Numbered from the stretch's first letter, positions 15,364 to 49,355 are shown. The stretch: 64,000 bases of DNA from an uncultured Candidatus Rokubacteria bacterium (GCA_963747235.1 CAVVEU010000031.1:32001-96000); one strand, 5' to 3'. The notes: generated by a model from the sequence alone, not told the origin. Translations and numbers: made by a program.

Positions 15364-16786
15364 ATGCCCGAGCCGGTCCGCGTTCGCTTTCCGCCCAGCC
15401 CGACGGGCCATCTCCACGTGGGAGGCGCCCGCACCGCGCTCTTCAACTGGCTCTACGCGCGCCATTACCAGGGCGTCTACGTGCTCCGGATCGAGGACAC
15501 CGACCGCTCGCGCTCCACCGAGGAGTTCACCCAGTCGCTCCTCGAGGCGCTGCGCTGGCTCGGGCTCGACTGGGACGAGGGGCCGCCCACGCCCGGCTAC
15601 CGCCAGACCGAGCGCTTCGAGATCTACCGCGCCCACGCCGAGCGGCTGCTCGCGGAGGGGAAGGCCTACCGCTGCCGGTGCACCCCGGAGACGCTGGACG
15701 CGCTGCGGAAGACCGCGGAGGCGCGCAAGGAGACGTTCCGCTACCCGGGCACCTGCCGCGCGGCCAATGTGCCCGCCTCCGAGCCCCACGCCCTGCGCCT
15801 GGCGATCCCGCGCGAGGGCGAGACGGTGGTGGACGACGTGAACCGCGGCCGGGTGGTCTTCAGCCACGCCGAGCTCGACGACTGGATCCTCGTGCGGACC
15901 GACGGCACGCCGACCTACAACTTCTGCGTGGTCGTGGACGACGTGACCATGAAGATCACCCACGTCATCCGCGGCAGCGATCATCTCTCGAACACGCCGA
16001 AGCAGGTGCTCTGCTACCAGGCGCTCGGCTACCCGCTGCCGGTCTTCGCCCACATCCCGATGATCCTGGCCGCGGACAAGACACGGCTCTCCAAGCGGCA
16101 CGGCGCCACCTCGGTGCTCGCCTTCCGCGACATGGGGATCCTGCCCGAGGCCATGCTGAACTACCTGGCGCGCCTCGGCTGGTCCCACGGCGATCAGGAG
16201 ATCTTTTCCCGGGACGAGCTGGTCCAGCACTTCGACCTGGCCCACGTGGGCGCGGCCGACGCGGTCTTCGATCTGGAGAAGTTCAAGTGGGTCAACCACC
16301 AGTGGATCAAGCGGCTGCCCGCCGCGCGTCTGGCCGCGGAGCTGACGCCCTTCCTCGAGCGGGCCGGCCTGCCCGCCCCGCGCGACCTCGCCTGGCTCGC
16401 GCGCGTGGTGGACACGCTGAAGGAGCGGGCGCGCACCCTCGTCGAGATGGCCGAGCAGGCCGCGTTCTACCTGCGCCCACCCGACGCCTACGATCCGCAG
16501 TCCACCGCGAAGTTCTGGAAGGAGCAGGCCGCCGAGCGCTACGCGATCCTGATCAAGCGCCTCGAGGCCCAGGACGCGATGGACCCGCAGGCGCTGGAGG
16601 AGCTCTACCGCTTCCTCGCCGCCGACCTCGAGCTCAAGCTCGTGGACCTGGCGCAGCTCACGCGCATCGCGCTTGACCGGCAAGACCGCGAGCCCGTCGA
16701 TCTTCGAGGTGGTGAGCATCCTCGGCAAGCCGGAGACGCTCGCCCGCCTCAAGGCCGCCGCGGCCGCGGTGGAGGCCCGCCGGTGA
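15364..16786 (+). CDS. gltX: Glutamyl-tRNA synthetase (frameshift near 16675)
   Basis: RFPPSPTGHLHVGG, LRIEDTD, PTYNF, HVIRGSDH, RLSKR. Confidence 0.95.
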
Positions 16787-17416
16787 GACGGCTCCTGCTC
16801 GCGCGCCACGGGCAATCCGTCTCCAACGCGGTGAGGCGGTTCCAGGGCGCGCAGGACGTGGCGCTCTCGCCGCTCGGCATGCGCCAGGCGGAGGCGCTGG
16901 GCCTGGCGGTGGGCCGCCGGCCGATCGCCCACGTCTACGCGAGCCCGCTCGAGCGCGCCCGGCACACCGCCGAGATCGCCCTGGCCGGCCTCGACCTCCC
17001 GCTGACGACGGTGGACGACCTGCGCGAGCTGTCGCTGGGCGAGTGGGAGGGCTGCACGGTCGAGGAGATCCGCACCCGGCCCGGCGATCCCTATGCCCGC
17101 TGGGTGCGCGATCCGGTGCAGTGCCTGCCGCCGGGCGGCGAGCCGCTGGCCGACGTGCAGGCGCGCGTGGTCCAGGCGGTGGAGCGGATCGCCGCCGCGC
17201 ATCCTGAACGGCGACGACGTGTTGATCGTCTCGCACGGCGGCGTGATCAGCGCGCTGCTCGCCCACTGGCTCGGCCTGCCGCTGTCCTCGATCTGGCGGA
17301 TCGCGGTCGCCAACTGCTCGCTCTCCGAGATCGCCCCGCCGCGGGTGGTGTCGGTGAACGAGACCGGCCACCTGCGCGACATCGACGTCGCGGTCACCGC
17401 CCCGCTGAGCCCGTGA
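16783..17416 (+). CDS. Histidine phosphatase family protein (frameshift near 17205)
   Basis: LARHG, SPLERA, LRE..GEWEG, VSHGG. Confidence 0.85.
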
Positions 17417-40673: not shown

Positions 40674-41228
40674 ATGAAGCGGACAATCGCGTTCGTGCTG
40701 CTCAGCGCTCTGGCCGTCCTGCCCGCCGTGGCGCTCGCCAAGAGCGAGCCGATGGTGGGTGGACAGGCGATGTTCCCGAGCAAGGACATCGTGGACAACG
40801 CCGTGAACTCGGCGGACCACACCACGCTCGTGGCGGCGGTCAAGGCCGCCGGCCTGGTGGACACCCTCAAGAGCCAGGGGCCGTTCACGGTCTTCGCCCC
40901 CACCAACGCCGCGTTCTCGGCGCTCCCCGCGGGCACGGTGGACACGCTGCTCAAGCCCGAGAACAAGGCCGGTCTCACCAAGGTGCTGACCTATCACGTG
41001 GTGCCCGGCAAGATGGACGCCGCCGCGTTGCAGAAGGCCATCAAGGCCGGCAACGGCACCGCCACCCTCAGGACCGCCAGCGGCGGCATGCTCTGGGCCA
41101 TGATGAACGGTGACCGCAACATCGTGCTCAAGGATGAGAAGGGCGCGGTGGCCAGCATCTCGACGTACGACGTCTACCAGTCCAACGGCGTGATCCACGT
41201 GATCGACCGCGTGGTGCTTCCCAACTAG
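40674..41228 (+). CDS. Secreted fasciclin (FAS1) domain protein
   Basis: Signal peptide, TTLVAAVKAAGLV, GPFTVFAPTNAAF, LTYHVV, NGVIHVIDRV. Confidence 0.93.
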   Translation: MKRTIAFVLLSALAVLPAVALAKSEPMVGGQAMFPSKDIVDNAVNSADHTTLVAAVKAAGLVDTLKSQGPFTVFAPTNAAFSALPAGTVDTLLKPENKAGLTKVLTYHVVPGKMDAAALQKAIKAGNGTATLRTASGGMLWAMMNGDRNIVLKDEKGAVASISTYDVYQSNGVIHVIDRVVLPN

Positions 41229-41260
41229 AAGCGAGCCTGAAGAGCCTCTCCTCCTCACCT

Positions 41261-41295
41261 CCCTCTCCCCTCAGGGGAGAGGGCAGGGTGAGGGG
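41261..41295. repeat. REP-like family B copy 2, between convergent genes (may also terminate transcription)
   Basis: CCCTCTCCCC-tca-GGGGAGAGGG-CAGGGTGAGGGG. Confidence 0.85.
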
Positions 41296-41321
41296 TGGTG
41301 TCAACGACCCGACGTTGTACG

Positions 41322-41882
41322 CTAGTTGCTCACCACCGGATTCCGCCGCACGGTGGGCACCCCGATCTTGATGAACGCGTGCTGCTCCGCCGCGTGGCAG
41401 GCCGTGCACGCCGCGCGCATGACCTCGATCCGCTGCTTGAACAGGGCGAGGTCCTTCGCCTTGATCGCGTCCATCACCTGCAGGTAGGGGCCCTTCAGGA
41501 AGAGTGCATCGGCGTTCTTGCGGTACTGCGGCCGCCGCTCGAGGCCAACCGAGATCGCGCCGCCCATCTGGTGCGCCATGTGCGCGGCGTACTCCCAGTT
41601 GCCGTCGATCCCGCCGAAGTACATCTCCGTGTATCGGTATGCGACCTCGGCCATCGTGGTCTCGAACCCGCGGAGCTGCCGCTCGATGGCGGCGGCCCGG
41701 GCGTCCGGCGTCAGGCGCTTGTACCACCCACCCGGGTCCGGGACCCCTGGGGAGCGCGTGTGCGAGTGGCTCGGCGCCTGCGCGCGCACCGCCTCCCAGC
41801 CCGCGGCGGCGCCCAGGCCCACCAGGGCGGCGACGACCGCCATCACGAGAAACGAGCGGATCCGGCTATCGGGTCGTGTCAT
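41322..41882 (-). CDS. Exported mono-heme cytochrome c (class II/c'-like)
   Basis: N-terminal signal/TM, helical body, C-terminal CTACH. Confidence 0.75.
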   Translation of the reverse strand: MTRPDSRIRSFLVMAVVAALVGLGAAAGWEAVRAQAPSHSHTRSPGVPDPGGWYKRLTPDARAAAIERQLRGFETTMAEVAYRYTEMYFGGIDGNWEYAAHMAHQMGGAISVGLERRPQYRKNADALFLKGPYLQVMDAIKAKDLALFKQRIEVMRAACTACHAAEQHAFIKIGVPTVRRNPVVSN

Positions 41883-41896
41883 GAGCGGGAGTCCTT

Positions 41897-42280
41897 TCAC
41901 CGTGACGCTTTCACCGTGAACGTGAAGCGACTGTCGACGATATGGCCGTCCACCGAGAGGACGCGGTACTTGACGGTGTAGAGGCCGGACTGGCGCACCT
42001 CCACCGTGACCGAGAGCCGGCGCGGGTCGTCCGGGCCCACCGTCACGTCGCGCGCGTCCACCTGCGCGCCCGCCTCGTTCCACACCGAGACCGTGCTGTA
42101 GGCGGGCTCGAGACGCTCGTTGAACCAGAGCTGCACGCGCTCCGGCATCTGCCCCAGCACCGCGCGATGCGCGGGCGTCGAGCGCACCAGGGAGGCGTGC
42201 GCGCCGGCGGGCGGCGCGGGGCAGGCGAGACAGGCCAGGAGCGCGACCGCCAGCGCCCCGTCCCGCCAGCGGCCCCTCAC
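41897..42280 (-). CDS. copC: CopC copper-binding protein
   Basis: Signal peptide ending AGA|HASLVRSTP, LWFNE, YTVKYRVLSVDGH. Confidence 0.88.
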   Translation of the reverse strand: MRGRWRDGALAVALLACLACPAPPAGAHASLVRSTPAHRAVLGQMPERVQLWFNERLEPAYSTVSVWNEAGAQVDARDVTVGPDDPRRLSVTVEVRQSGLYTVKYRVLSVDGHIVDSRFTFTVKASR

Positions 42281-42661
42281 CGCTTCCCGGCCGGCTCCGG
42301 CGCGGTGACCGTGAAGAGCACGATGCCCTCCGTCACGTGGCCGTCGGCGGCCATCACCTTCCAGCGCGCCTGGTAGGCCCCCGGATCGAGCGGCGGCAGG
42401 GCATAGGCGAGGGTGTCGGCCGGGGTATCCGGGTCCTGGCGCAGCAGCGCGATGGTCTTCTGGCGCGGCCCGACGAGCTGCACGGAGCAGAGCGGCTTCT
42501 CGAGGCGGCTGTTGAAGCGCAGGACGAGCCGCTTCGGGCTCGCCAGCGATTCCTCGTGGCGTCGGAGCGGACTCGAGGATGATGGCGTGCGCGTGCGCGT
42601 CGGGGAGTCCCCACAGGCATGCCCCGATCATACCCAGGACCGCCAGGATCGCGAGCTTCAT
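42277..42661 (-). CDS. copC: Second CopC protein (frameshift near 42560)
   Basis: AHA|HAIILESAP, LRFN, YQARWKVMAADGH. Confidence 0.82.
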
Positions 42662-43888
42662 CGAGCGTTCGGGAGGCGGACCGGCTGCACCACCGTCTTG
42701 AGGAAGGGGAACTGCTCCTCGTGCCAGGCCACCAGGAACGAGCCGTCGGGGGCGAAGGCGATGTCGGGCGAGTAGGCCTTGATGGCGGTGGACAGCACGT
42801 GGATGGGGCTCAAGGTCCGCCCCGCGTCGAGGGTGTAGCGCAGCAGGATGCGGCGGCGCACCGCGGTGGACTCCTCCCACACGATCACCGCGCGGCCCGC
42901 CGGGTCCACCGCCATGCGCGCCTGGTCGGGAATGGAGGTCGCCGAGGTGTGCAGCCGCCTGGCCGGCCCGAAGCGGCTGCCCGTCCGTCGAGACGGCGAA
43001 CTTCAGGTCGGGCCGGATGTCGCTGCCCTCGGTGTACCAGCTCATGTACACGCGGCCCTTCGCGTCCAGGCCCACCGCGCCGCCGCGATGGGGACAGGCA
43101 TTGATCTTCCAGTGATCGGCGCTCACCAGCGTCGCGTCGCCGAAGGTGCGCCCGCCGTCGCGCGAGACCGCCAGCACCATGTCGCGGATATCACCCGGGA
43201 AGACGCGCCGCCAGGTGAGCGCCACCGTGTTGCCCGCGCCGGTGGCCGCGTCCACGCGGCAGCACACGCAGGTGTCGTCGCCGACCTTCCGGATGCCCTC
43301 GACCCGCGTGCCCTGCTCGGCCACGCGCGCGACCCAGGTGGCGGGATCCTTGCGGCCCTCGTGGCCGTCGATCCACGTGACCAGCACGGTGCCGTCGGCC
43401 GCCACCGCGAGCCCGTCGAACGAGTGCGAGATGGGCCGGTCCTCGTTCACCCGCAGGGGCGGCCCGAAGGTCCGGCCGCCGTCGAGGGAGCGGGAGAGCT
43501 GCAGGTCGGACGCGAAGAACGTCCCCTCCGGCTTGGCCTTGCCCGAGGACCAGGACACGTAGACCGGGCCGCCCGCGGCCACCGCCAGCCGCGGCGGATG
43601 ATGGAGCGCCTCGACGGTGAGCGCCTCGGGATTGACCCGCACCGGCGTCGAGCCGTTGCCGATCTGGAGCACGTAGAGCTGGTTGGCGTGGCCTTCCTGG
43701 GCCGCCCACGTCACGAGCGGCCGGCCGTCCGGGCCCGCCGCCACCGCCGCGCCGGAGAGGTGGAACTCGTGCCCCCGGCTCACGTGCTTGTACTCGAGGC
43801 GCGGCCCGAGCGTCAGCTCCGCGGCCGGCGTGGCGGTGGAGGCCGCCAGGACGAGCGCGACCGCCACCCCGATCCGTCTCATGCTCAT
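42658..43888 (-). CDS. Exported BNR/Asp-box (sialidase-fold) protein with CxCC and CPH motifs (frameshift near 42980)
   Basis: SRSLDGGRTF, SRDGGRTF, TCVCCR, WKINACPHRG. Confidence 0.8.
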
Positions 43889-45980
43889 CGCCACCTCCAG
43901 GAGACGCCGCCGTAGAACGAGCGGCCGTCGCCGGGGAAGAAGAAGCGCCGGTTCGCGTCGTCGGTCGCCACCGCCGCCGAGTAGCTGGTGTCGGTCAGGT
44001 TGCGGGCCTCGAAGAACACGCCGATTCCGGTCGGCTTGTGCTCGAAGCCGGCCTTGAAGTTCACGAGCGTGTACGGGTCATTGCGCGCGTCGTTCTGGCT
44101 GTTCACGAAGTAGCCCTTGGGCACGATGTCGAAGCCGGGCGCCATCCAGAACCCGGAGCCGTGATCGTAGCGCAGCTCGGTCTGGATGAAGTGCCGCGGC
44201 GCGCCGGGCAGGTCATTGTCGCCGAAGTTGACGTCGTTCACGAACACGAAGCGCGACCAGGTGTAGGCGGCGCGCGCCCGCAGCGAGTCGCCGGCGCGGC
44301 CGAGACCGATGCGCGACAGGATGTCCTTCACCAGCAGCAGGTCCACCCCCGCCTCCACGCCGGTGTGGCGCGAGCGGTCGATGTTGCGGAAGCGCGGGAT
44401 CGTGAACGGGGCGCCCGGGAAGGGCTGGACGTTCACGTTCTGGATCTCGTCCCACAGCTCGGCGTCGTAGACCGAGACGTCCCAGGCGAGCCGCTCGCCC
44501 ACGTTGCCGCGGGTGCCCACCTCGAACTGCCAGGACGTCTGCGCCGCGAGCTGGCCCAGGTTGCCGCCGAGCTGGCCGGGCGCGGTCAGCTCGAGCAGCG
44601 CGGGCGGCTCGTGGGCGTGGCTGGCGTTGCCGAAGACCTGGATGTGGGCGCCACCTTCCAGACGAAGCCGGCCCGGGGCGAGGCGGAGAAGAAGTCCACC
44701 GCGTCGGACTGGTTGCCGTCCCGCTCGAAGCGATCGCGGACTTCTCGCGTCGCGTAGTTCACGCGGCCTCCGGCCACCGCGGTGAAGGTGGAGGTGAGGT
44801 CGAGCTGCTCCTCGAGGTAGCCCGCGACGTTGTTGGCGATGTTGAACTGGTCCTTGGTCTTGGCGCCGCGGTTGCCCCGGTTGTTGGCGAAGTTCACGTC
44901 GATCTGGCGGGTGCCGAAGAACTGGAAGCCCGCGGTGAGCCGGCTGGCCAGGCCGAAGAAGGGCGCGGTCAGGATGTAGCGCGCCTCGGTGCCGTAGCTG
45001 TAGGTCGTGTCGTCGATGATCGCGAACGACAGCGGGTGGTCCATGTCCTGGTAGTTGACCTGGGTGAACCACTCGAGCGCCTGGTTCTCGCTGAGCGGCG
45101 TGCGGACGGTCAGGGCCCCGCGCGTGTAGTCGTAGTTGCGCTCCTCGCTGAACTGGCTGGTCGCCGGGTTGCGCTGGCGGCGATTGCGATCCATCTCCTG
45201 CTGGGTGAGGGCGCCGGGCAGGTTCTCCTCGTTCTGGACATAGCCGAGGTCGAGCCGGATCGTCGTCCCACCCGCGAGGCGATAGCCGAGGCTGGCGTAG
45301 GCGCGGCGCCGGATCTGATCGCCGTGCTGCCGGAACCCGTTCACCTCCGTGTCGCTCAGGCCGACGTAGAGATCGACCGGCCCGTAGACCTGGCCGGTCC
45401 CCACGTAGTTCTTGAGAAAGCCGAACGAGCCGGCCTCGCTCCGCAGCTCGATGAGCGGGGCGTCGTAGCCGGTCTTGGTGACGAGGTTGATGGCGCCGCC
45501 CAGGGTGTAGCCGCCGAAGCGCAGGGCGTTGGCGCCCTTGTAGACCTCGATGCGCTTGGTGGTCAGCAGCTCCAGCGACTCGAAGTCGCCGAACCCGTCG
45601 GCGTTGCCGTACGGGAAGCCGTCGATCAGGATGTTGAGGCCCCGCAGGTGGAAGTTGCTGCGGAGCCCGGAGCCGCGGATCGAGATCTGGCTCTCGTCCG
45701 CCGCGCCGAAGCGGGGCTGCACGAACACGCCGGGCACGAAGTCGAGCGCGTCCTTCAGATTCGCCGCGCGCGACTGCTCGATCTTCTGCTGGCCGACCAC
45801 CTCGGTGCCGCCGGGCACGCGGCGCAGCTCCTCGCGGGCCTCGGTCTCGGTCCGGGTGCGCTCGTCGGGCGCGCGGCTGCCCTCGACGATGACCGGGGGC
45901 AGCGTGGTCTCCGGCCGTGGCTGGGCCGTCGCGATGAGAGGGGTGAGCATGATGGCGAGTGCCAGGATGATGGGGCGCAT
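43885..45980 (-). CDS. TonB-dependent receptor (frameshift near 44650)
   Basis: TonB box (LPPVIVEG), plug (ISIRGSG, LIDGFP, RIEVYKG, GGAINLVT), C-terminal NLTD..Y and GRSFYGGVSWRW. Confidence 0.92.
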
Positions 45981-45988
45981 GGATCTCC

Positions 45989-46769
45989 TCACTGGGTGAG
46001 CCGGAATTCGACGGGGAGCAGAACCCACATGGCGACGGCGTCGGCGCCGCGGCGTGCCGGCTCGAAGCGCCAGCGCCGCACCGCCTCCATCGCGGCCTGA
46101 TCGAGGTCGGGGTGGCCGGCGGAGTGCTCCACGAGCACGTCGCCGATGCGGCCGTCCGCCAGGACGTGCACGCGCAGCATGGTCGTGCCCTGGATGCCGA
46201 GCCGCCGGGGCGCGGACGGATAGGCCGGGCGCACCTGATAGCCGCCCTGCGGCCGCGCGGTCCGGGTGACGCCATCGGGCGGCGTGGTGGAGGGCTTCGA
46301 GGCGACGTGGGGGCCGACGGCGGAAGCGCGATCGTGGTGCCGCTCGAGGCGGGGGCCGACGGGCCCGGCGCCGGCGCGGGCTCGCTGATGGCGGGCAGGG
46401 TGGCCGTCGGTGCCGGCCCCTGTCCGCGGGGGCCGGAGCGGGCGTGGGCGCCACGGCGGGCGCCGGGAGGGCGCGACGGGCTGCGGGGCGGGCTCCTCGA
46501 CCTTGGCGGCGGCGACCTCCCGCGGCTTCGGGGGGTCCGGCCGCCGGATCGGAGCCGGCCGCTCACGTCGTGGCGGCGCCGGGGGCGACCTCCCGTGGAG
46601 GCTCGACGGCGTCGAGCGTGACGAGCTGCACGGGGAGCACCGGCGGCTGCTGGGCCACCACGCTGGTCACCCATTGCTGACCCACGATGAGACCGGCGAC
46701 CAGCCCCACGTGGAGCAGGCAGGACAGGCCGATCGGCATCGCACGCCACCACGACAGCTCGTTGAGCAC
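45989..46769 (-). CDS. tonB: TonB energy transducer (frameshifts in the Pro-rich linker)
   Basis: TM with SCLLH, Pro-rich linker, YP..ARRLGIQG, LDQAAMEAVRRWRFEPA; GGAGG RBS before GTG 46769. Confidence 0.85.
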
Positions 46770-46871
46770 GAACGCTTCCCTCCGCAAGCCAGGATTGGAA
46801 CCGCGACAGCCGGGACACCCGCACGTGGCCGCGGCGCATGGAGCGCGCGGGGCGCGGGAGACCGCGGCGAG

Positions 46872-47475
46872 CTACAGGATCGCGGAGGGAGGAGCGCGCC
46901 CCTGGTCGGGGCTGAGGAAGCGGGTCGGGATGGACGCCGGGGAGCGGCCTCTGCCGGTCCGACGACGGGGAGCACGATGGAGGACAGCCCGGGATCGTCC
47001 ACCTGCACGGCGGCCAGATGGGCGGAGGCCGCGGCCACCGTGCACGCTTCCTGCTGCTGCGGGTCGAAGCCGTGATGCACCGAGTGCAGCGCGTTCTCGA
47101 ACGCGAAGACGCAGAGGAGCAGGGCGAGCGTCACGGCCACGGCCCGCCGCGGGCGCGATACACGGCAGGGCCGGGGTTGGAGGGGGGAGGGATGGAAAAA
47201 ATAACAAATTAGGAGTAGGGTGGAACCAGAGCAGAGAGGGAAGAATGGTAACAAGCGGCCAGGGCCGCCAGCCCCAGCGCGGCCGGCAGATACCAGGGCA
47301 GCGCGGGCGCGGCGGGGGCCGCGGTCAGGGCCGGGATGGTCCCGGGGGCCTCGACGGGCTGGAAGGTCTCCGCCGGAGGCGCCGACGCGGGAACATGGGC
47401 GCCCGCCGGGCCGGCGAGGGCCAGTAGGGCCAGCACCAGCAGGAGCGACATCGACACGCGCTGAAGCCGCAGCAT
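46872..47475 (-). CDS. Putative DUF2946/CruR-like leader membrane protein with C-terminal RAPP (reconstructed across three frames)
   Basis: Signal peptide (AGA|H), TM, TM followed by HSVHH...ACTVAAASAH, ends QGRAPPSAIL*; interrupted by anomalous sequence at about 47165-47254. Confidence 0.6.
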
Positions 47476-47482
47476 ACGCGAC

Positions 47483-47511
47483 AAGGTAACCACTGAACCG
47501 GGTGACGTCAA
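47483..47511 (-). promoter_or_regulatory. Sigma70 promoter for a leaderless transcript of the RAPP leader/tonB operon
   Basis: TTGACG-N17-TACCTT-N7-ATG. Confidence 0.7.
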
Positions 47512-47574
47512 GGAAGGTTCCGGGGCCCGTGTTTGACGCCACCGGAGGGGGTGTGGGATCATTAACGCCCCGTC

Positions 47575-48886
47575 ATGAAAGTCCATTTCACGACCCTCGG
47601 CTGCCCCAAGAACCAGGTGGACTCCGAGCTGATGCTGGGCATGCTGACCGAGGCCGGGCATCAGATCGTCGAGGCCGCCGGAGGCCGCCGATTGCCTGGT
47701 GGTCAACACCTGCGCCTTCATCGACCGGGCGCGCGAGGAGTCGGTCAACACGATTCTCGAGCTCGCGCAGCTCAAGGAGCGCGGGCGGGCGCGATCCCTC
47801 ATCGTGACGGGCTGCCTCACCCAGCGCTACGGCGGCGAGATCCGCACCGAGATCCCGGAGATCAACGCGATCCTCGGGACCTCGGAGCTGCATCGCATCG
47901 TGGAGCTCGTGAACCAGGCCGACGGGCGGCAGGCGTGGGTGAGCGCGGCGCCGCCGGGTTATCTGTACGACGCGCAGACCCCGCGGCTGCTCAGCGGCCG
48001 GGTGCCGTACGCCTACGTGAAGATCGCCGAGGGCTGCGACATGGGTTGCACGTTCTGCGCGATCCCGCAGTTCCGCGGGCGCCACCGGAGCCGCCCGCAG
48101 GCCGACATCGTGGCCGAGGTCAACGGGCTCGCGCGCCGCGGGATCCAGGAGGCGATCCTGGTCTCGCAGGACACGCTCGCCTACGGGCGCGATCTCCCGG
48201 GCAACGGCGACATCGGCGACCTGCTGCTCGCGCTGTCCGACACGACGATGCCGTGGATCCGGCCGATGTACCTGCACCCCGCGCACGTCACCGAGCGCCT
48301 CATCGCCAAGTGGCAGCGCGCGCGCGTGGTGCCGTACCTCGACATGCCGGTCCAGCACGGCGACGACGGGATCCTGCGCGCCATGCGCCGCGGCGTCACC
48401 GCGCAGCGCATGCTGGACGTCATCGCGCGGCTCCGCGACGCGCTCCCCGGCGTGACCCTGCGCACCACGGTGCTGGTGGGCTTCCCGGGCGAGACCGAGG
48501 CCGCGTTCCACAACCTGCTCGGCTTCGTCGAGGACGCGGGCTTCGATCGGCTCGGCGTCTTCACCTACTCGGTGGAGGAGGGCACGCCCGCCGCCGACAT
48601 GGCCGATCAGGTGCCGGCCGAGGTGATGGCCGAGCGCGCCCAGCAGGTGCAGGACCTTCAGGATCGGCTGGCGTGGCCGCGCCAGAAGGCGCTCTTCGGC
48701 ACCCGCCAGACCGTGCTGGTGGACGGGCCGAGCGCGGACTCCGCGTTCCCCTTCGAGGGCCGGACCGCCGGCCAGGCGCCCGAGATCGACGGCGTGGTGC
48801 TGCTGCGCGACCGCGCGCTCACCCCGGGGCGCTTCGCGGAGGTCACCATCGTCGAGGTCGAGGGCTACGAGCTCGTCGGGGAATAA
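47575..48886 (+). CDS. rimO: Ribosomal protein S12 methylthiotransferase (frameshift near 47690)
   Basis: LGCPKNQVDSE, NTCAFI, KIAEGCDMGCTFC, APEIDG TRAM domain. Confidence 0.92.
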
Positions 48887-48917
48887 GCCGCTCGGCGCGC
48901 TCGATCGCCTGGCCTTC

Positions 48918-49355
48918 GTGCTGGCCAGTGTCTTCGGCGCCGGTTATGCCCCGGTGGCGTCGGGCACGGTCGGCAGCTTCGTCACCGTGGTCGCGATCTG
49001 GCTCCTGCCGCTCACTCCGCTGCGCATCCTGGTCGCGCTGGTCGTGGTCACCCTCATCGGCATCTGGTCCGGCTCCCGCGTGGAGCGGGTGCTGGGCACG
49101 AAGGACCCCGGCGTCATCGTGATCGACGAGGTGGCGGGCATGCTGCTCTCGGTGATCCTGCTGCCGCCGACCATTCCCGTGCTCGTCACCGCGTTCCTGC
49201 TCTTCCGGCTCTTCGACATCTGGAAGCCGTTCCCCGCCCGCGAGAGCCAGGCCCTCACCGGCGGCGTGGGCGTGATGGTGGACGATCTCATCGCGGGCCT
49301 CTACGCGCTGGTGCTCGTGCTGGGCGCGCGCGCCCTCTTCGGCTTCCCCCGGTGA
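48918..49355 (+). CDS. pgpA: Phosphatidylglycerophosphatase A (start uncertain)
   Basis: APVASGTVGS, DPGVIVIDEVAG, FRLFDIWKP, GVMVDD. Confidence 0.9.
   Translation: MLASVFGAGYAPVASGTVGSFVTVVAIWLLPLTPLRILVALVVVTLIGIWSGSRVERVLGTKDPGVIVIDEVAGMLLSVILLPPTIPVLVTAFLLFRLFDIWKPFPARESQALTGGVGVMVDDLIAGLYALVLVLGARALFGFPR

Follow-up and report, generated by a model that had tools for sequence, protein, structure and literature searches.

Metal-sensing ribosome-arrest leaders, such as CruR of Bordetella pertussis (Bp2923) and CutF of Rhodobacter capsulatus (cutFOG), represent a recently found regulation without a regulator protein, and have so far been defined by Cys motifs and by the DUF2946 model. In CruR, the CXXC and RAPP motifs are 45 residues apart, a spacing required for copper control, and DUF2946 as defined by CruR combines CXXC and RAPP with an export signal and the first position in copper-related operons (PMC9426467). 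With CutF, ribosomes stall across the membrane in response to copper, and the stem-loop that otherwise covers the cutO ribosome-binding site (RBS) is opened (bioRxiv 10.1101/2025.02.05.636593), and CutF-like clusters with putative metal sites of Cys, His or both have been described, of which the His-only clusters 14 and 17 adjoin HupE/UreJ genes (Ozturk et al. 2023, PMC9973294). More broadly, small proteins with RAPP or RGPP are enriched 5′ of genes for TonB-dependent receptors, YcnI, PCuAC, PepSY and copper proteins in many phyla, and RAPP-like sequences, otherwise avoided in proteomes, concentrate near the C-terminal ends of small regulatory proteins (Fujiwara and colleagues, PMC12992588). 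Here we analyzed a stretch of 64,000 nucleotides (nt) from an uncultured Candidatus Rokubacteria bacterium (GCA_963747235.1, CAVVEU010000031.1:32001-96000), which as a whole is called the window, and in which the minus-strand gene series at 47475-41322 begins with a leader gene followed by tonB. When intact, this first gene would encode a protein of ~170 amino acids (aa) that is probably a cis-acting, metal-sensing arrest leader like CruR and CutF and, in the window's clade, may open the tonB RBS.

The leader was traced in a set of 14 homologous proteins, obtained by a word-indexed search with the His/Cys piece as query, and in 17 loci (L001-L017), obtained by a pattern scan of one-genome-per-species contigs, 12 of which are labelled Methylomirabilota, Rokubacteria, Rokuibacteriota or Methylomirabilia. 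In all 17 loci it is a single open reading frame (ORF) of 169-181 aa from a conserved ATG, with the order signal peptide, Pro/Ala-rich linker, first transmembrane helix (TM1), RRPRR, second transmembrane helix (TM2), HSVHHG, Cys and RAPP. The signal-peptide part is fused in frame to the sensor part in every locus and in the homologue P0014, and the extra signal peptide and transmembrane helix that a first-pass annotation of this DNA had noticed are thus present in all 17 relatives. Invariant among the 17 are M1, H27, E96, H100, S101, V102, H103, H104, G105, C114, Q161 and R163-A164-P165-P166, and since H27 directly follows the A-x-A of the signal peptide, it is the predicted mature N-terminus. 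The C-x7-H element proposed earlier did not hold, its second residue being H in 11, Q in four and N in two of the 17. RAPP lies in frame with the His patch in all 17 loci and in 13 of the 14 homologues, the 14th ending before this region, a linkage on which the first-pass annotation had made its reading depend; four or five codons separate RAPP from the stop in the relatives, and the leader is always the first gene of the operon in the evaluable loci. The RRPRR stretch that joins the two hydrophobic helices would suit a cytoplasmic location, in which case the N-terminal His and the His/Cys segment would both be periplasmic.

The contigs of L005, L006, L012, L016 and L017 are labelled Limnocylindria, Acidoferrum, Nitrosotalea, Deferrimicrobiaceae and Dormiibacterota; they have the same synteny and a RimO 90-96% identical to that of the window, suggesting that they are probably mis-binned Methylomirabilota contamination. 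In addition, a paralogous leader (ETAVHSVHHL...C...GRAPPA-stop) was observed on the minus strand of L008 (14868-14512), L010 (11317-10787), L011 (19248-18556) and L013 (19312-18668), where it is the first gene of a convergent operon that also encodes an outer-membrane protein, a CopC and a membrane protein judged CopD-like by eye; no copy of it was found in the window.

The window's own copy of the leader and the region up to tonB comprise the following features:

47209-47475, minus strand: N-terminal piece of the leader, with a signal peptide (predicted cleavage between AGA and H), a Pro/Ala-rich linker and TM1; ORF 47475-47212, its TAA at 47211-47209 lying inside the insertion
47164-47255, minus strand: 92-nt CT-rich insertion of low G+C (~50%) with a stop, in the leader ORF; missing from the aligned L001, L002, L003, L004 and L006
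46946-47155, minus strand: sensor piece of the leader, in a second frame, with the RPRR loop, TM2, FAFENALHSVHHG, Cys and an amphipathic helix
46872-46952, minus strand: arrest piece of the leader, in a third frame (46952-46875), ending ...SPDQG-RAPP-SAIL-stop (stop 46874-46872)
46770-46871, minus strand: leader-tonB intergenic region of 102 nt, with the tonB RBS GCGGAGGGA (46785-46777), complementary to the PPSA codons of the leader by minimum free energy (MFE) and centroid folding

Within the arrest piece, the minus-strand RAPP codons are R 46898-46896, A 46895-46893, P 46892-46890 (a rare CCT) and P 46889-46887.

To the family at large, a profile of 26 C-terminal halves was applied against 1.84 billion cluster representatives, which yielded 675 representatives at E ≤ 1e-3, 273 of them with E ≤ 1e-10, and motifs were counted in the best 150 of the 675. 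Among these, HxxHH is present in 150 of 150, and the arrest motif is RAPP in 142, RGPP in five and RSPP in two, with none in one. In all 149 motif-bearing proteins, one or more Cys residues lie between the His patch and this motif, and the distance from the first Cys to the Arg of the motif is 47-49 residues in 148 of them, with 118 having exactly 48; after the motif come 1-12 further residues (mode 4). A small-x-small-His sequence was found within residues 13-50 in 95 of the 107 proteins of at least 150 aa. Six-frame translation of the window (G+C about 72%) gave 13 further cases of RAPP or RGPP at most eight residues from a stop; thus RAPP near a stop is frequent by chance and the motif alone is non-significant, and the evidence lies in the conservation, which for HSVHH, Cys and RAPP extends to 17 of 17 loci, as the earlier annotation had proposed to check. 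The spacing between metal site and RAPP is as fixed as in CruR, supporting a distance set by the geometry of ribosome tunnel and translocon.

Compared with CruR, the present leader is likewise exported and first in an operon with a TonB-dependent receptor, ends in RAPP a few residues from the stop in a high-G+C setting, and carries its metal motif at a fixed distance from RAPP, 48 residues here versus 45 in CruR (PMC9426467). It differs by HxxHH, a single Cys and a predicted-cleavage-site His in place of CxxC, by a signal peptide plus a two-helix transmembrane hairpin versus a signal peptide alone, by an intergenic region of ~100 nt folding onto the next RBS versus 162 nt and Rho, and by its occurrence in Methylomirabilota versus Proteobacteria. 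As in CutF, the sensor would be exported co-translationally, with the metal site already periplasmic before the C-terminal Pro motif has left the ribosome, and stalling would open an mRNA stem, here a predicted one, that hides the RBS of the next gene. Unlike CutF, which has CxxxC and PPP, it has HxxHH/Cys and RAPP, and the arrest codons themselves make up the stem strand; furthermore, the target of CutF is a detoxifying multicopper oxidase and its stall is induced by copper, whereas the operon here is uptake-like, so that the opposite sign would be expected. ApdA/ApdP and SecM resemble the leader in their RAPP or RAGP core at the C-terminus, in an N-terminus of secretory or membrane type and in controlling the next gene (PMC10951233, PMC12992588), but they monitor Sec/YidC activity, whereas the present family carries a conserved metal-type motif and lies ahead of tonB and CopC genes.

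With respect to the traits that CruR and CutF have in common, the C-terminal arrest motif at a fixed spacing from the metal motif is found, in the window itself when a 1-nt deletion is allowed for, and so are the export signal, as a signal-peptide-like N-terminus with two hydrophobic helices, and the first place in a metal-homeostasis operon. CutF-like leaders with His or His plus Cys in the putative metal site are already in print, making the His-type variant less new than first supposed, while the His-only clusters 14 and 17 of that survey differ from the present leader in sitting beside HupE/UreJ (PMC9973294). The terms Rokubacteria, Methylomirabil, HSVHH and CopC had no match in 8,054 characters of the supplement text of the same paper, its main list excluded, and no naming of a leader family with the present motif set and topology was found in the literature on DUF2946, arrest peptides and Rokubacteria copper/TonB. 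Thus, the kind, i.e. the metal-sensing arrest leader, is already known, and the HxxHH/Cys family with two transmembrane helices is an apparently unnamed addition to it: 675 representatives with an HxxHH-plus-Cys site, a two-helix hairpin and an invariant predicted-cleavage-site His that the DUF2946 model misses.

We then considered how the leader may act on the next gene. Pairing was tested on 16 sequences, namely the window, L001-L007 and L016 as the window-side group, and L008-L013 and L017. In the MFE and centroid structures of the window, the PPSA codons pair as reverse complement with the tonB RBS and the GRA codons with the GTG start, and the folded leader-tonB region reached -77 kcal/mol (z -2.53, with 3 of 200 shuffles as good). 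Throughout the window-side group, duplex energies of -27 to -35 kcal/mol were determined, falling in the best 0.4-8% of same-locus windows. The modelled cost of opening the tonB start in the window dropped from 21.0 to 10.0 kcal/mol with a ribosome placed at RAPP, versus 18.1 kcal/mol with the footprint ten codons earlier, and such a RAPP-specific opening was obtained in nine of the 16 sequences. Compared with synonymous recodings, the codon choice gave better pairing at a fraction of 0.004-0.12 in seven of eight clade sequences and not elsewhere, and 12 of 16 sequences use CCT for the first Pro of RAPP (46890-46892 in the window), a codon that accounts for one of 155 Pro codons in seven L001 genes. 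Where tonB, receptor and propeller are deleted, the tonB start is retained, and in L005, L008 and L010 it is fused in frame to CopC1, which fits selection keeping a leader-controlled start site. These data suggest that, in the window's clade, the codons of the RAPP region pair with the tonB RBS and stalling turns translation on, so the arrest codons themselves appear to form the anti-RBS strand.

In the proposed mechanism, TM2 would already be in the membrane at the stall and the His patch and Cys newly out of the translocon, the peptidyl-transferase centre then lying about 50 residues from the Cys and about 60-65 from the His patch; as these distances approximate the length of tunnel plus translocon, the site would just be exposed to the periplasm. 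Binding of a metal, most likely copper, at the His/Cys site would change the pulling force on the nascent chain and with it the stall length. The stalled ribosome would free the tonB RBS and start from the RAPP-region codons in the window's clade, allowing translation of tonB and the coupled genes, and the stem would re-form once the ribosome reaches the stop codon. Because the operon is of the uptake type, stalling and expression would be expected when the metal is scarce, with release on metal binding, i.e. in the same direction as in CruR.

A more elaborate version of this mechanism, which we regard as rather doubtful, is a split co-translational copper sensor, in which the N-terminal His made by signal-peptide cleavage would be held by the TM1-TM2 hairpin beside HxxHH/Cys, a copper bridge between these two periplasmic ends would generate the force releasing the stall, and the arrest codons, with a first Pro codon CCU that is hardly used elsewhere, would double as the strand hiding the tonB RBS. 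The fixed 48-residue spacing would then let the His/Cys segment leave the translocon exactly as the ribosome reaches RAPP, and if this were true, the roles of sensor output, arrest site and translational switch would all fall to a single short stretch of mRNA and peptide.

Downstream of the leader, the following genes complete the series:

45989-46769, minus strand: tonB, GTG start, TonB_C E 8.6e-22; frame broken between the N-terminal transmembrane part and the C-terminal domain
43885-45980, minus strand: TonB-dependent receptor with Plug and barrel domains (Pfam), frame break near 44644
42658-43888, minus strand: exported sialidase-fold beta-propeller with CxCC and CPH (weak BNR/BNR_2, AlphaFold, Foldseek), frame break near 42976
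42277-42661, minus strand: CopC 1, CopC E 3.6e-15, predicted mature N-terminus His, DGH motif, frame break near 42562
41897-42280, minus strand: CopC 2, CopC E 2.2e-23, predicted mature N-terminus His, DGH motif
41322-41882, minus strand: exported ~185-aa protein with a C-terminal CTACH haem-binding motif (CxxCH in 13 of 13 orthologues) and HxH near the predicted mature N-terminus

The packed, co-oriented arrangement reported by the first-pass annotation was borne out over 47475-41322 on the minus strand, most adjacent genes overlapping or having a few bases between them, with the 102-nt leader-tonB gap as the sole exception. The tonB gene, the receptor and both CopC genes were recognized through TonB_C, Plug plus TonB_dep_Rec and CopC above the Pfam curated cut-offs, and the CVCC and CPH motifs and the CTACH of the exported protein described as cytochrome c are all present. 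For the protein called BNR, the name is weak in the window (Pfam BNR, 14.2 bits) and was better supported by BNR_2 on the intact L001 orthologue (E 5e-5). Likewise, neither a CopD nor a regulator gene was found within 41322-47475 by gene calls and Pfam, as had been stated. For annotation, the leader would account for how a conserved Methylomirabilota CopC/cytochrome operon could be regulated without an adjacent regulator gene.

Operon content was judged on the 13 loci of sufficient length. The leader, CopC2 and the cytochrome gene are kept in 13 of 13; CopC1 has lost part of its sequence in L005, and a divergent CopC stands in its place in L015. The genes for TonB, receptor and propeller are all present in seven loci (L001, L003, L004, L011, L012, L013 and L017), the tonB orthologue of L001 being intact with 258 aa. 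The CopC domains scored 57.2 and 83.5 bits in the window and 68.5 and 84.2 bits in L001 against a Pfam cut-off of 23.3, and 59.7 and 76.4 bits for the NCBIfam copper_CopC equivalog, below its cut-off of 95. By orthologue comparison, the two CopC proteins each begin, after predicted cleavage, with His and contain a DGH motif, both of them putative Cu(II) ligands. As a candidate class II cytochrome c (cytochrome c'/c556 type), the CxxCH protein matched Cytochrom_C_2 with 16 bits versus a cut-off of 26.5 in the window, had no match at E ≤ 0.01 in L001 and had no sequence match in the PDB. Across the 13 loci, a conserved HxH (e.g. SHxH or GHxH) was observed a few residues from its predicted signal-peptide cleavage site, which suggests a second metal site besides the haem. 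In the propeller, C207, C209, C210 and C265-P266-H267 are invariant, and CxCC, CPH and several His residues recur across 32 sequences, a Cys/His set not usually seen in glycosidases, which suggests that the protein holds a metal or redox centre. Its AlphaFold model (predicted local distance difference test score, pLDDT, 87.6) retrieved generic sialidase, lectin and lyase propellers by Foldseek at template modelling scores of 0.5-0.65, pointing to no specific function, a PDB sequence search gave nothing useful, and the source annotations name it 'sialidase family protein'. A reading of propeller and cytochrome as a pyrroloquinoline quinone (PQQ) dehydrogenase, prompted by the PqqU-like receptor, was dropped, as no PQQ or GSDH family matched.

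A number of observations speak against the copper-sensing arrest leader or parts of it, beginning with the fact that arrest and metal response are deduced from sequence and by analogy, the leader itself showing the RAPP motif, its position and its conservation, and the arrest mechanism being that described in PMC10951233 and PMC12992588. In the window, the leader is split over three frames instead of forming one ORF, and the small membrane protein ending in RAPP of the earlier annotation was found as one ORF in all 17 relatives, not in the raw window. The AlphaFold model of the L001 leader places helices at 2-26, 62-76, 78-104 and 108-129 with the rest disordered, at low confidence (pLDDT 59.8, predicted template modelling score 0.28), too poor to place the cleavage-site His relative to the His patch. 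PF11162 (DUF2946) had no match at E ≤ 1 on the three window leader pieces, on which no Pfam family at all was found, and it matched one of 17 full-length orthologues (E 0.012) and 11 of 146 family representatives at E ≤ 1 (best 1.8e-4). A neighbouring atlas cluster with DUF2946 (rank 28, score 0.83) is a lead only, and in place of a CXXC or CxxxC metal motif there are a single invariant Cys and HxxHH. The DUF2946 profile run, earlier suggested as a check, was thus unfavourable, and of the proposed DUF2946 variant with HSVHH/Cys for CxxC the CruR/CutF-like leader stands and the recognition by PF11162 falls. Judged from its sequence, the leader would work like CruR/CutF, and membership in DUF2946 is not supported by the profile or by CxxC.

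The mRNA pairing is limited to part of the sequences, the duplex ranking only at 21-69% among same-locus windows in L008-L013 and L017 (seven of 16), and the modelled opening effect being absent in L006, L008, L010 and L012, position-unspecific in L009 and L011, and reversed in L017. Even with the ribosome stalled, the tonB start still costs about 10 kcal/mol to open in the model. RNAalifold on the 16-sequence alignment gave three short local helices and no long-range helix, with the RBS region off register between the groups, and Pro-Pro codons resemble an anti-Shine-Dalgarno sequence in any case. As to import through the receptor, tonB, receptor and propeller are all missing in five of the 13 loci (L005, L008, L010, L015 and L016), and L007, the sixth reduced locus, keeps tonB and lacks receptor and propeller; L005, L008, L010 and L016 retain a remnant of the tonB start only, and L015 has an outer-membrane protein gene instead. 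These repeated deletions, which spare the leader, the intergenic region and the tonB start, were seen at 10317-10607 in L005, 10320-10505 in L008, from 6585 onward in L010 and from 10344 onward in L016, and also in L007. The downstream receptor, whose conservation was also to be checked, is thus present in seven and missing in six of 13 loci. Its best NCBIfam match is PqqU (190 bits versus a cut-off of 1200), siderophore, haem and B12 families come next, no copper-named family, and with it no copper receptor of the OprC/NosA type, occurs among the 22 NCBIfam matches listed, and its nearest solved relatives are YncD (6v81) and a PQQ transporter (9c4o).

Among the other explanations, the one that survives best is tentative and leaves the arrest leader as it is, giving it a CruR-like output: a stalled ribosome would block Rho from a C-rich intergenic site, and release would lead to Rho-dependent termination before tonB, with RBS occlusion secondary or absent. 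This is the CruR mechanism (PMC9426467), and it would also cover the seven of 16 sequences without detectable RBS pairing. In each of the 16 sequences, the first 60 nt past the stop contain 2 to 14 more C than G, but the excess is weak, as 1%-50% of the same-locus 60-nt windows are equally skewed. Moreover, the intergenic region is strongly structured, which disfavours Rho loading, and measures 82-118 nt versus 162 nt in cruR.

For the sensing arrest leader as such, the link to copper rests on the CopC genes, and copper import through the receptor is uncertain; the copper import assumed by the first-pass annotation is accordingly supported by the two CopC genes and opposed by a receptor that is PqqU/YncD-like and missing from six of 13 loci. 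Copper is further suggested by the CxxCH protein, conserved in all 13 loci with its HxH, and by the invariant CxCC and CPH of the propeller. It is unlikely, in our estimate, that the ligand or cargo is something other than copper, i.e. another His/Cys-bound metal (Ni, Co or Zn) or a cofactor taken up by the PqqU-like receptor. Such a possibility is raised by PqqU and YncD as the best receptor relatives, by the His-only CutF-like clusters beside HupE/UreJ (PMC9973294), and by a propeller and a CxxCH protein that lack a specific functional match; yet CopC2 and the cytochrome accompany the leader in all 13 loci, two CopC genes follow it (CopC1 being altered in L005 and L015), the paralogous leader stands at the head of genes for an outer-membrane protein, a CopC and, by eye, a CopD-like membrane protein, and a mixed His/Cys site resembles copper sites.

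It is equally improbable that the window's copy is a true pseudogene or part of a decaying operon, with real insertion and frameshifts and a system that does not work in this organism. The leader carries a net 1-nt deletion around 46926-46959 relative to L001, L003 and L004, and 92 extra nt versus L003 and L004 by BLAST segment arithmetic. The flanks of the insertion form an imperfect direct repeat of about 15 nt, its boundaries being ambiguous by the repeat length; the window holds no second copy of it, searches of plasmids and phages gave no match, and an Rfam scan of 46500-47700 gave no family. Frame changes also occur in tonB, the receptor, the propeller, CopC1 and rimO (near 47676), i.e. 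in at least six genes within 41200-49000. So many breaks, together with a stop-bearing insertion and the repeated loss of tonB, receptor and propeller in the relatives, would fit decay, and since the single-base indels lie mostly outside long homopolymers, real decay stays conceivable. However, the neighbour rimO, a housekeeping gene, is frame-broken as well, by which most of the breaks in the window read as assembly errors; rimO is also fragmented in L004, another locus from a long-contig metagenome-assembled genome, which points in the same direction, and amino-acid identity to the intact orthologues is 78-96% across most pieces. Thus, for most frame breaks and the insertion, errors of an indel-rich assembly are a likelier source than real lesions, and the 92-nt stretch taken by itself could be a real insertion or an assembly artefact.

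Finally, that the leader is mainly a stable membrane-anchored copper-binding protein, as a chaperone or a partner of CopC or the cytochrome, with little regulatory role for RAPP, is very unlikely, for although its ~170 aa and two transmembrane helices make it longer and more elaborate than CruR or CutF, its TM2 and His patch are strongly conserved and its invariant predicted-cleavage-site His recalls the N-terminal His of CopC, RAPP is found in 142 of the 150 best representatives, always 1-12 residues from the end and at a fixed 47-49 residues from the Cys, RAPP-like sequences are avoided in proteomes and cluster at small regulatory C-termini (PMC12992588), and the gene always heads its operon.

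Upstream of the leader, one further feature was identified:

47483-47521, minus strand: conserved promoter-like region with GGAACC 47521-47516, TTGACG 47511-47506, a 17-nt spacer, TACCTT 47488-47483, 7 nt and ATG

The region aligned without gaps in 18 of 18 sequences (the window and the 17 loci), with TTGAC, GTT, TA...T and ATG invariant and GGAACC nearly so. The promoter of the earlier annotation is in this sense conserved, while the consensus promoter scan did not call it, because its -10 element matches the consensus at only three of six positions. Read as a sigma-70-type promoter, the 7 nt between the -10 element and ATG would predict a leaderless mRNA. GGAAC-N18-GTT (47496-47521), which overlaps TTGAC, presumably resembles the promoters of extracytoplasmic function (ECF) sigma factors, and an ECF-like reading would imply a regulator encoded elsewhere. 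The sole promoter call of the consensus scan lies on the plus strand before rimO, and no terminator was called by it at the 3′ end of the operon. The series is flanked by a divergent rimO upstream and by a convergent fasciclin gene and yajQ downstream; in L001, the cytochrome and fasciclin genes are separated by an additional ORF of ~1.3 kb (15889-17193) without counterpart in the window.

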